DNA of 64,000 bases from Flaccisagitta enflata. Its lineage: Eukaryota. The position numbers and the translations under genes are program-made. The notes under the pieces are model-generated. The model had not been told where the DNA came from. It searched no databases and worked only from the letters and a program-made list of their open reading frames with translations. Location: contig OZ231126.1 in the NCBI GenBank assembly GCA_965153355.1, positions 18,662,001-18,726,000 of the forward strand, read 5' to 3'. Shown in pieces: positions 12,601 through 15,600 of this stretch (the first letter of the stretch is position 1; every line of letters begins with the position of its first letter).

Positions 12601-15600
12601 GATGATCCCGCGGCCTCTTGCAAGAGCGTCGGCGTCGCCGAGATCCAAGCATGGCCAGCTTGCTCCATTGGAGACGCACGCACAGGTTCAATTTCCGAGA
12701 CCAAATCTGATACCCATTGATTGACGGCATCTCCTCTTTGGATCGGCGGCAGATTTAAAATTGGCCGCCAGTCGGAGATTGCGCACCATGTCCGGGCCGG
12801 AAGTGGTAGATACTCGGATCCGTCGGGGTTTGGCGAAGACGTTCGCATCCTTGGAGCCGGAGCGCCGGTAACATTGTCACGGGCGCGTGAGTGTCAGTTG
12901 GGAGACTGTTCCATGAGAATTCGTTGACGGGTCTTTGCGATTCCCAATGTCGTTGTGCACTGCGTTCACGATGTCGGCGTTGGAAGGAAAACCCTCTGGA
13001 TAGTTTTCACGATCAAAGAAACGCATGGAGTCCCATTCGCGAATTCGACGCAAAGAAGACGCCGCGAATCGAAGAGGGTCGCCGGGCATCGAATCGAGCG
13101 CCATTTGTCTTGCATACGATATGAAGTCGTAGACCATGTCCCGAAGCCGTGTCGAGCGCCATCCGATTCAGGCGGCGTCGTCGGTGTCGCTCGTTCCTTC
13201 GGTGCAAGCAGAAACGGCGTCCAAAAGGCGCCGGCATCCTTCCATTTCCGCAGTGATGTCGCTCTCATTGCGCAGCACCATTCGACCTTCGACACTGATT
13301 CAAACCGAAGCGAGATACACGATGACGTTGGCGGTCGAGACGGTGTCGTCGTTACGCGCGGCTGCCATTGTCCACTTTCGCGGAGGTCGAAGATGAAAAG
13401 AATCGAGTCGTTTTAAATTGTTGAAATATAAATTACGCCCACGGTTTCAACTGGCACTGTCTTATGAGCGTCTATCTGACTGACGACTTGTGTGAAAGAA
13501 AGTTGGCCGATTGGAAAATAGGAAGGCGATCGTCTCGTTTATTCCATAAAAATTTCAACAACTGAAGAGAGGGGAAAATGAAAGGGAAAGTGGGCGTTAA
13601 TTGTGATCAGCAAACGCAAAAGATAACATGAAATCGAGATGACACAATAAAGGATAGAAACAGCACATGACGACATGTTCATCTTCTTCAGAGCCCATGC
13701 CACCTGATAACACCTGCCCCTGCCCCGGCCCATCCCATTAAATTCATCCATATCATCCCTATAGCAAGCTGATCGGACAAGCGAAAAAAAAAAACCATAC
13801 TAAAATCCGGCGATAAAAATGCAAAAGGGCAAAAGACAAAAATAACAGACCGGAAGACAAGATAAAAACAACGTTAATAAAAGCAGAAACGCGTCTATAA
13901 AACTTACTTTTAGGCCCACTTTCGTTGGTTTCAACCCACAGTCTGTCGATGTCAAATTAACGTTAATTGTCCGTTCATTAGTTTATCTGCAATAAAAAGA
14001 TGAGAGATTATTGAAATTAGTGAATTCCAAGGGCGCATTCAAACGATCATAAAAATCAATCAATTACTTTAAGAAGCGATGCCATAAATAAATAAAATCA
14101 ATCAATCCAAAAATTGGATGATACGAAAGACGAGTTACGTATATTTGCCTACGTAGTAAAAACAAATGGCACAAAATCAAGGCGCAACCATATGGTTACC
14201 CATCTAGCGTTCAATATAAAAAATGGCAAGAAACAAAAGACACGGGCATCGAATAGTAGAGAAAGAGAAAAAGCCAAAAGCACGCAAAAGAGACAGAAGG
14301 CACACACACCTAAGAGACGGACCGACATACATTTCTAACACCTGCTTTTAGCTGTAGCTCGAAATGTTTGAATTCTCTTAGGTCCCGGAGCATTGAATCT
14401 GCTTTACCTAGTACTAATGACATGTTTTTGGCGGCATCAAGAACCTTAATGCTGATTTTTTTAGAAATTTTAGTTCTGGGTTATGAGATCATAATTATGT
14501 TCGCAAGTAAATTATGTACCACTCACTATTTGCATGATTGCCTTCTCCATTTTGTAAACCACTAGACCTAATCTCTGACGTTGATGATTAACCGTTACCC
14601 AAAAGATAACATTAGGCCAATTACTAAAACATTTGACATCCTTGGTCAGTTTTTGGTAGCTAAGTAATTTGTTGTTCCAAACCATTACAGAGAAAAGCAC
14701 AATGCAAGGTGTGAACCCCCTGAAAACTGTAGCACCCTTGCCTCCAGCCCTAGCTAAACTTTTGGGCTTTTGCAAGAAGATTGATATCAATATAAGTGGC
14801 GCTATTAGAATAATTTTTTTGGAATAAATTATTTTGAACTGTTTATAAAAGCAAGGATTTTGTGCTATAATCTAAGATAAGAGTGGAAACTGCAAAATTG
14901 TTTTGGTGGCACCACTTATATAATCCTAAAGTACAATTTGTGACTCTATGTAAATTATTTATTATTGTAGTTTTGTCTGGTTGGGGGGTGATACAGTATT
15001 AAGGGTTCACACCTTGTATTAACCCTACTTTGAACAGTACTAAATGATTAACGCTCAATGGCGCTTAAGATTTTGACTCTCCCATGTGCTAATCAACCTG
15101 TTGCTAATCTGCTTTTTATAAATCTTATCCAGCTTCACCTCCCCTCCCACCTCCTCCAGAGGATATGATGGTTCCTCCGCAAAGTGCTCTCTTTAACTCT
15201 CAATCAGGTGTCTAAAAAATTTCTAAATGCAAATTAACTATTTACAGATTGAAGGTTGAGAACTTTTCTTCTCTTCTTACTTCTCATGATTTCCCCTTTC
15301 ATTTGTAATCAGGGCCGCGAGTCAATATGGCGCAACATGTATCTGGTCAAGGCATTTACAATTCAACCGGAGGTACGTCAGCGGACTCAGAAAGATGAAG
15401 TGTTCAGTTGTGTCAATATGCAAAAGTATTTTTGATTAAATTATTAATAATGATAATTATCAGTAAAAATATTATATAGTTTTATTATATAGTTATATTA
15501 TATAGTTAGAATTAAAAATTTACATTTTTTTTTTGCGCAAAAATTTTTTTTATTACTTCACCAAAAAAACCTTATGAGTATTGACACACCCAATTTGAAG

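Follow-up and report, generated by a model that had tools for sequence, protein, structure and literature searches.

On the minus strand of the window, i.e., the whole 64-kb stretch of DNA analysed, lies a degraded BEL/Pao element of 13.1 kb. It is bounded by a 5' LTR of 914 nt (13427–14340), starting with TGTTAG and ending with TTTATA, and a 3' LTR of 912 nt (1242–2153), which share 97.9% identity over 921 columns (blastn, MAFFT alignment) and are flanked by a 5-bp target-site duplication, GCAGG, with an upstream copy at 14341–14345 and a downstream copy at 1237–1241. The boundaries are fixed by the LTR pair together with this duplication, and an RNA-library contig derived from another copy of the same family diverges exactly at 13427, i.e., at the same LTR boundary. 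Following the element on the minus strand, a probable gag ATG (ATGGCAGCC, 13366–13368) stands 58 nt past the 5' LTR, in a region aligning with the gag of a relative, L001 (tblastx); a pol remnant with many stops and frameshifts spans 5630–9543 (tblastn with P0001); two open frames without family match, regarded as the remnant of a third ORF, occupy 3456–5495 and present weak tblastx similarity to the post-pol regions of L001 (ORF3) and L002; and a polypurine-tract-like sequence, AAAAATGGGGCAGAA (2154–2168), directly precedes the 3' LTR. No second copy of the element was found within the 64-kb window.

Over residues 1–1312, the pol remnant aligns collinearly with P0001, a BEL/Pao pol of 1312 aa carrying PF05380, PF17921 and PF18701. 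The Pfam search, run on stop-free frames, returned Peptidase_A17 at 7482–8132 (E = 1.1e-8), DUF5641 at 5630–6460 with 21.6 bits, just below the cut-off of 23.1, and weak aspartic protease matches at 9298–9585 (20.1 and 18.7 bits, below the respective cut-offs of 24.3 and 28.2). In a FastTree topology, the supports of which were not inspected, this pol clusters with BEL/Pao loci; a pol of the chromovirus type, as expected of the Tf1/sushi clade of Ty3/gypsy, was not found in the element. By its pol domains in the order PR-RT-RH-IN, together with LTRs of 914 and 912 nt flanked by a short duplication, the element is assigned to BEL/Pao, in agreement with the initial annotation of this DNA. It is a decayed, very high-copy member of a BEL/Pao lineage, and run X1 shows an extreme abundance of the family (contig search); this abundance and the LTR likeness of about 98%, despite a stop-riddled pol, fit functional cis signals and mobilisation in trans.

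The layout around the 5' LTR end follows the initial annotation closely, namely a post-LTR sequence lacking a TGG to pair with a tRNA, an initiator-like motif about 137 nt inside the LTR followed by a polyadenylation signal, and an 11-nt pairing between the two regions. [quoted passage not shown] No TGG, and as such no PBS complementary to a host tRNA 3' end, was found in the first ~48 nt past the LTR; since this character is descriptive rather than phylogenetic, its lack does not remove the element from BEL/Pao. With ARAGORN, no tRNA gene was detected in the window, nor in the 80 loci searched together with it (output parsing not double-checked). Inside the LTR, the motif TCAGTT (13560–13565), one of only two occurrences of TCAGT there, provides the proposed +1, i.e., the A at 13563, which sits 137 nt from the LTR end. 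About 6% of the raw polyA RNA run X22 yielded 0 reads of the element, a result that speaks neither for nor against its expression or this start, and contig runs do not reveal starts. The first 11 nt of the transcript predicted from this start, AGTTGTTGAAA (13553–13563), are identical in both LTRs, and AATAAA follows at 13538–13543 (+21 to +26), 10 nt beyond the helix. Positions 13426–13416 pair with 13563–13553 over 11 of 11 positions, with 10 Watson-Crick pairs and one G-U at helix position 2, and the pairing is extendable by one pair through the last LTR base; counted as a perfect Watson-Crick core, the helix is 9 bp long (12 bp with the G-U and the last LTR base) and lies 135 nt from the LTR end. 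When the 914-nt LTR was scanned without gaps, 13563–13553 came out as the single best partner of TTTCAACAATT, the next best site reaching 9 paired positions. A DPE-type motif, AGACG, is present at +29 to +33, 1 nt off from its expected position, and was not used as evidence.

Comparison was extended to further BEL/Pao loci, found on marine metagenome contigs, since the initial annotation had proposed looking for conservation and covariation of the pairing in related families. Six further families (L036, L037, L039, L040, L045 and L051) exhibit a perfect helix of 9–12 bp between the post-LTR sequence and the LTR interior, the distance between arm starts ranging from 67 to 163 nt across families. 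Where the LTR ends are fixed by LTR pairs and only perfect Watson-Crick runs are counted, the helix is of 9 bp at offset 0 and 140 nt from the LTR end in L036 (matched by 32 of 2000 shuffles), of 10 bp at offset 4 and 96 nt in L039 (23 of 2000), and of 12 bp at offset 2 and 112 nt in L040 (1 of 2000). In L036, both LTR copies end with GCAGCCACA. The LTRs of L037, L039 and L040 are homologous, with arms CGTGTGTTTAC/GTAAACACACG, TGTTTTTTAC/GTAAAAAACA and CATGTTTATTAC/GTAATAAACATG, respectively; among them, two-sided, i.e., compensatory, changes occur at five helix positions while none of the pairs in the 10-bp core is broken, so that the helix appears to be maintained by covariation in these related elements. 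L036, L045 and L051 share the layout with differing sequences, L045 and L051 reading TTTCAGTTTTTAC ... CCGCTACA GTAAAAACT, with the A of TCAGTT as the first base of the helix and AATAAA lying at +22 and +19, respectively. The same search yielded loci with a TGG-type PBS (TGGTCCTTCGAGCCGG-like), namely L063, L068, L069, L077 and L080, and in L068, L077 and L080 the helices at this position reach only 4–6 bp, a length matched by 409–1769 of 2000 shuffles. When pairing was counted from +1 at 29 TCAGT sites upstream of gag, a scan that left out L051, the window element reached 11 positions (counted as Watson-Crick), L045 reached 9 and the rest at most 7. Helices of at least 9 bp occur near gag starts in 12 of 49 loci vs. 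48 of 705 decoy positions. This comparison speaks in favour of the initial reading, with recurrence in six families, compensatory changes in one clade and no such helix in relatives of the TGG type.

Some of the loci cut against this layout. In L001, which is closest to the element among relatives that include a 5' region, the helix has only 9 bp and begins 4 nt past the shared TCTCTTCAG motif. This locus lacks a defined LTR end; going by a terminal inverted repeat, TGTTA...TAACA, the downstream arm would fall within U5, LTR ends taken from such repeats in single-LTR contigs being ambiguous. Within the element's own clade, L001 is the sole source on covariation, for which it is ambiguous. Among TGG-less families, L009 and L058 display no such helix at the post-LTR position and L007 reaches 8 bp only, at 283 nt from the LTR end. 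Helices of 11–15 bp in L027, L030 and L035 were not counted because these loci have no defined LTR ends; in both L027 and L030, moreover, the TCAGTT and AATAAA pair is located elsewhere and the best helix starts away from the predicted initiator. A 9-bp helix in L009, L010 and L014 was set aside as well, since it lies beside the post-LTR region and does not constitute it. No relatives were found in the viral contig collection or in the genome contig collection.

In Tf1, the element's own 5' nucleotides anneal to a PBS located after the LTR, and cleavage by RNase H leaves an 11-nt primer. A comparable route would apply to the window element, where (i) transcription would begin in the 5' LTR, with the A (13563) of TCAGTT as its first base, (ii) the first 11 nt would fold back across R-U5, which is 137 nt long, to pair with the 11 nt right after the LTR, and (iii) the element RNase H would cut behind the duplex, the freed 3' OH priming strong-stop DNA, with the LTR boundary at 13427/13426 as the point where the primer would end. 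With no tRNA-type PBS, an exact geometry, and a pairing that recurs and covaries in other families, the element is probably self-primed in this Tf1-like manner, i.e., its minus strand would be primed by its own transcript, through the 5' end, rather than by a tRNA 3' end. The G-U at helix position 2 bears on one detail, as copying of the whole primer by the plus strand predicts a PBS variant ending in AACT, and none is present among the matches listed from the contigs of three runs; transcription may therefore start 2 nt further inward, or copying may leave out the terminal bases. For the broader claim that a BEL/Pao lineage self-primes, the layout does recur and covary, although several TGG-less families are without the helix and L001 is ambiguous. 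Extended to several deep marine-animal lineages of BEL/Pao (the clade of the window element and at least three others from metagenome contigs), the proposal is that they may have abandoned tRNA priming for the first 9–12 nt of their own capped transcript, folding back over the 67–163 nt of R and U5, for which we put the chances slightly short of even.

Self-priming has to be weighed against the binding of a host RNA primer that has no CCA end to the post-LTR sequence. Such a primer could be a fragment from inside a tRNA, a copia-like half-tRNA or another small RNA, and the LTR complement would then be a regulatory or chaperoning helix masking or presenting the PBS. Given its place next to the gag AUG, the helix might alternatively take part in packaging, dimerisation or translation control; in L035, L039 and L040 the downstream arm reaches the gag ATG, touching or overlapping it. 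Half-tRNA priming has a precedent in Ty1/copia lineages (Neumann et al., 2019, PMC6317226), and a 10-bp U5-leader helix in L068 flanks an ordinary TGG tRNA PBS, meaning complementarity alone is no proof of priming. A host primer, however, predicts a PBS conserved across families, whereas the sequences at this position differ (TTTCAACAATT, ATAACAATC, GTAAACACACG and GTAATAAACATG) and vary jointly with the partner in their own LTR; moreover, the downstream arm is the PBS by position, at an offset of 0–4 from the LTR end, and not the flank of another one. On this account a host primer is considered unlikely.

Less probable still is that the match in the window reflects chance complementarity within a dead element, the true primer site having been lost or unrecognised. 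The sequence is AT-rich, the copy heavily decayed and the match was picked in the initial annotation after looking. Under loose criteria, i.e., a 9-bp perfect Watson-Crick core anywhere in the 914-nt LTR with offsets 0–5 allowed, 111 of 2000 mononucleotide shuffles do as well, and the 164-nt leader is no more stable than its shuffles (z of -0.46, 59 of 200 as good), even with the terminal helix present in both the MFE and centroid folds of 13563–13400. The full 11-mer, by contrast, is rarely reached in dinucleotide-preserving shuffles of the LTR, with all positions paired in 79 of 5000 and at least 10 Watson-Crick pairs in 26 of 5000; the start of the helix falls exactly on one of the only two TCAGT, and AATAAA follows shortly after the helix; the architecture recurs in six other families, including compensatory changes; and no variant in either arm was present among the matches listed from the contigs of three runs, amounting to thousands of pieces. 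A coincidence is, as such, improbable. Self-priming through an internal fold-back instead of the capped 5' end, with a start upstream of 13563 and RNase H cutting an internal hairpin, could accommodate the upstream arms beginning 1–4 nt past the nearest CA/CAG in L001, L036 and L037 and the best helix of L027 lying ~65 nt after its TCAGTT and AATAAA pair, but it is very improbable given that in the window element, L045 and L051 the initiator A is itself the first base of the arm, and that each arm is followed by a polyadenylation signal, in keeping with R beginning at the arm.

Self-priming from the capped 5' end would matter beyond this locus, as the choice of primer is fundamental to how retroelements replicate, and BEL/Pao is described as tRNA-primed in taxonomy profiles. 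The mechanism is known from Tf1, and what would be new here is its occurrence in BEL/Pao, the third LTR superfamily. The initial annotation knew of no such report, and none of BEL/Pao self-priming was found in the open-access papers searched, which are part of the whole literature. If true, tRNA-independent priming would have evolved or persisted in a third LTR superfamily, making self-priming a recurrent solution across all three LTR-retrotransposon superfamilies and bearing on whether it was the ancestral state of LTR elements. In the BEL/Pao lineages concerned, it would set the LTR boundary, with copy-back keeping the PBS matched to R, and it would supply a sequence rule for both the transcript start and the LTR end, namely that the start of R, reverse-complemented, gives the 9–12 nt after the LTR. 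The failure of PBS-based annotation pipelines on many animal BEL/Pao elements would be accounted for as well.

Respective to known systems, the window element resembles canonical BEL/Pao in its LTRs with a 5-bp duplication and its PR-RT-RH-IN pol with Peptidase_A17 and DUF5641, a gag zinc knuckle being found in its relative L001 and a third ORF in relatives. For BEL/Pao (Belpaoviridae, Semotivirus), the ICTV profile describes priming by a host tRNA on an 18-nt PBS for tRNA-Arg or tRNA-Gly (PMC8742986), and the canonical element Achilles has a PBS for tRNA-Tyr (PMC4580426), whereas no TGG-type PBS adjoins the LTR in the window. Copia-type half-tRNA priming, represented by 1/2 tRNA-Met and 1/2 tRNA-Ile (PMC6317226), likewise involves a PBS that has no TGG and no complementarity to tRNA 3' ends, but that PBS is fixed by a conserved host tRNA, unlike the present one, which varies by family and matches its own LTR. 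Self-priming has further been predicted in the plant lineages Tcn1 (Ty3/gypsy) and TAR (Ty1/copia, with Houba and Osr-1) (Neumann et al., 2019, PMC6317226); as in the window element, the prediction comes from sequence layout only and relatives use tRNA, from which it follows that the trait arose or spread more than once, and the lineages so described belong to plant Ty3/gypsy and Ty1/copia rather than to BEL/Pao or an animal BEL/Pao clade. The closest parallel in geometry is Tf1 of Schizosaccharomyces pombe, with the Tf1/sushi group of Ty3/gypsy, for which self-primed reverse transcription is established (Lin and Levin, 1997, as cited in PMC6934838 and PMC5445492). The Tf1-like geometry described in the initial annotation holds: the window element is without a tRNA PBS, about 11 nt right after its 5' LTR are complementary to the predicted transcript start, R-U5 is enclosed by the duplex, and an 11-nt primer would end precisely at the LTR boundary. 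It differs from Tf1 in an R-U5 of 137 nt, in one G-U within the duplex, in cleavage and priming that are predictions from sequence, with no extra U5 stem-loop structure shown, and above all in a pol of the BEL/Pao type, with Peptidase_A17 and DUF5641, instead of a chromovirus one. Since this pol lies outside the Tf1/sushi clade, self-priming, if it takes place here, would have arisen separately.

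In the window's element, a BEL/Pao retrotransposon of 13.1 kb on the minus strand, the sequence TTTCAACAATT (13426-13416) directly abuts the 5' LTR end on the element strand, and no TGG occurs within the first ~48 nt past this LTR. By position, these 11 nt constitute the minus-strand primer site, one incapable of binding a tRNA CCA end. Inside the 5' LTR, TCAGTT (13565-13560, minus strand) has its A at 13563 (the proposed +1), where AGTTGTTGAAA (13563-13553, minus strand) begins, followed by AATAAA (13543-13538, minus strand; +21 to +26). Between TTTCAACAATT and AGTTGTTGAAA, 10 positions pair in Watson-Crick fashion and one as G-U, and the last LTR base could add a twelfth pair; the initial annotation is confirmed in reporting no tRNA primer-binding site (PBS) and an LTR-internal pairing. 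In a gapless scan of the 914-nt LTR, the AGTTGTTGAAA site is the top partner of the post-LTR 11-mer (runner-up 9/11). TCAGT occurs just twice in the LTR, and the first base of the helix coincides with the A of one of these motifs. Both LTRs carry the same sequence in both helix arms. The LTR start TGTTAGAAAT (14331-14340) is also much like the proposed primer region TGTTGAAAT (13552-13560), so that the post-LTR sequence is nearly complementary to the LTR start too, with a 1-nt bulge.

The element is bounded by a 5' LTR (14340-13427, minus strand, 914 nt) and a 3' LTR (2153-1242, minus strand), both starting with TGTTAG and ending with TTTATA, 97.9% identical across 921 alignment columns and flanked on both sides of the element by the 5-bp duplication GCAGG; a polypurine-like AAAAATGGGGCAGAA lies directly 5' of the 3' LTR on the minus strand. 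The LTR thus terminates in TATA rather than the usual CA (13427-13430, 1242-1245), and that of the metagenome locus L040 likewise terminates in ...TATAT. Pfam matches on the minus strand comprise an aspartic protease (9298-9585), Peptidase_A17 (7482-8132, E 1.1e-8) and DUF5641 (5630-6460), while P0001, a BEL/Pao pol of 1312 aa, is collinear with 9543-5630 in three frames with 2-12 stops per aligned segment; the interior is thus that of a decayed BEL/Pao element. No second copy of the element and no tRNA gene were found within the 64-kb window. Compared with L001, an intact relative, ~1.45 kb of the gag region (10720-12176, minus strand) has no counterpart, tblastx matches skipping from element position 2165 to 3621 where L001 is continuous, and may represent an insertion or expansion. 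A third open frame 3' of pol (3456-5495; 9034-10560 in L001, at least 509 aa there) has no Pfam match and may encode an envelope-like or accessory protein in this clade. Tandem arrays abound in the remainder of the window (16206-16442, 18054-18664, 21540-22529, 36700-38650, 40753-42430 and 52664-57630), with periods of about 8-12, 13, 18, 19, 41 and ~150-160 nt; the GC skew is very strong (0.58) in the block at 36-40 kb, and an open frame of 917 codons (29204-31957, plus strand) gave only weak, sub-threshold coiled-coil-type Pfam matches.

In a search of public runs, the stretch was matched by those of "organism A" and by many marine metagenomes, and contigs of three runs (X1, X4, X17) were compared over 12800-14400; X22, the one raw-read RNA run mapped to this interval, yielded no reads. 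The DNA run X1 yielded 6768 contig pieces of very high summed depth, which indicates a very abundant element family; given this extreme abundance, and a pol stop-rich in three frames despite such similar LTRs, the window's copy was probably defective already at insertion, which would mean that the lineage was mobilised in trans. A metagenome contig (X4, record 20) spans both arms, and among the differences listed for the run contigs no variant falls within 13416-13426 or 13553-13563. An RNA-library contig of another copy (X17, record 9) matches the LTR up to 13427 and continues into unrelated sequence, an independent confirmation of the LTR end.

P0001 was aligned with 24 pol proteins related to it (at 33-78% identity), and with this alignment 80 BEL/Pao loci were retrieved from metagenome contigs; no relative was found in the viral and prokaryote-genome collections. 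FastTree on P0001-anchored pol segments, read for branching order only, places the window with P0001, L001, L002/L004, L005 and L003. A classical PBS (TGGTCCTTCGAGCCGG-like) occurs in L063, L068, L069, L077 and L080, all in a clade neighbouring that of the window, in which L068, L077, L080 and L076 form one group. L036, L037, L039, L040, L045 and L051 fall within one large distant clade. L002 (1-888) overlaps L004 (3449-4336) at 98.8% identity, the two being pieces of one family near L001; neither extends to the 5' LTR boundary.

Where LTR pairs set the LTR ends, the longest perfect helix was scored, together with the offset from LTR end to downstream arm and the distance from upstream arm to LTR end. 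Among loci with no TGG, it reached 12 bp in L040 (offset 2, 112 nt; shuffles as good 1/2000), 10 bp in L039 (offset 4, 96 nt; 23/2000) and 9 bp in L036 (offset 0, 140 nt; 32/2000), where GCAGCCACA terminates both LTR copies. The TGG-bearing L068, L077 and L080 gave 4-6 bp (offset 0-3, 141-319 nt; 409-1769/2000). L007 (8 bp, offset 0, 283 nt; 53/2000), L009 (7 bp, offset 3, 200 nt; 164/2000) and L058 (6 bp, offset 1, 71 nt; 296/2000) have no TGG, yet their helices are not convincing. L009, L010 and L014, a TGG-less BEL/Pao family, share a conserved 9-bp helix (e.g., L009 992-1000 with 1097-1105), with the upstream arm across the LTR end and the downstream arm ~100 nt beyond.

Covariation is seen in L037 and its allies L039 and L040. 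In the L037 contig, which is permuted (PPT followed by TGTTAG at 3530), CGTGTGTTTAC pairs with GTAAACACACG over 11 bp, 24 nt 5' of the ATG, with AATAAA at +43. Aligned from their common TTAC/GTAA end, the three helices differ on both sides at five positions (e.g., T-A vs A-T or G-C), the 10-bp core being unbroken in all three. In L045 and L051, whose LTR ends are inferred rather than set by LTR pairs, the order is TTTCAGTTTTTAC, AATAAA at +22 or +19, CCGCTACA and GTAAAAACT, the helix starting at the A of TCAGTT and ending after an LTR-terminus-like ACA. Among 29 TCAGT sites 5' of gag starts, a scan outside which L051 lies, only the window (11 Watson-Crick pairs of 12) and L045 (9/9) pair from +1, the others showing at most 7 pairs. 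Altogether, in seven families of at least four lineages, the primer-site sequence matches, as its reverse complement, a site lying 67-163 nt upstream (between arm starts) and varies among families in step with its partner; in three of them, pairing begins at the initiator A, 19-22 nt before the poly(A) signal. From these sequence relationships, we lean towards self-priming from the 5' end of the transcript. This interpretation, already proposed in the initial annotation, is partly supported and gains strength from the helices and covariation of other families. Some observations do not fit it. L001, of the relatives that include a 5' region the one closest to the window, has intact gag, pol and third ORF. 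In it, TCTCTTCAG is common with the window and TGTTATTAA, four nt past it, is complementary to TTAATAACA, 15 nt 5' of the gag ATG; this contig has one LTR, and a TGTTA...TAACA terminal inverted repeat would put the downstream arm in U5. In L027 and L030, the best helices start elsewhere than the TCAGTT/AATAAA pair, and in L068 a 10-bp U5-leader helix surrounds an ordinary tRNA PBS. In the window itself, the G-U at helix position 2 does not fit the product expected from full-primer copying.

The L068 case means that U5-leader helices are not specific to self-priming. A host primer other than a CCA end, with the helix being regulatory, is a rather unlikely explanation; family-specific primer sites changing with their partners argue against a shared host primer. 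Chance complementarity appears improbable: dinucleotide shuffles of the LTR returned a fully paired 11-mer in 79/5000, and in 26/5000 such an 11-mer had 10 or more Watson-Crick pairs. Under a looser score (perfect Watson-Crick run, offsets 0-5), the 9-bp core was equalled in 111/2000 mononucleotide shuffles, a result that speaks for chance. Across all 631,363 bases scanned, ten TTAC/GTAA-type helices reach at least 8 bp and exactly five at least 9 bp, namely those of L040, L037, L039, L045 and L051, all 5' of gag; perfect helices of at least 9 bp lie near the gag start in 12/49 loci, some belonging to one family, vs 48/705 decoy positions in the same loci. Internal fold-back priming is more doubtful still. 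In the predicted fold of 13563-13400, the terminal helix is present in both MFE and centroid structures, and the overall stability of the leader is unexceptional (z -0.46).

In the open-access literature, supplements aside, no link between BEL/Pao and self-priming was found, and PBS, tRNA and priming are all absent from the main text of the two main BEL/Pao surveys. Belpaoviridae are given as tRNA-primed in a passage of the ICTV profile (PMC8742986), and a tRNA-Tyr PBS is mentioned for the BEL/Pao element Achilles (PMC4580426). Self-priming is described in sections on Tf1 and its relatives (PMC6934838, PMC5445492) and predicted in one on the plant Tcn1 and TAR elements (PMC6317226). The layout of the seven BEL/Pao families, known here from sequence, is that of Tf1-type self-priming, and self-priming in BEL/Pao, if true, would be a new variant of this known mechanism.
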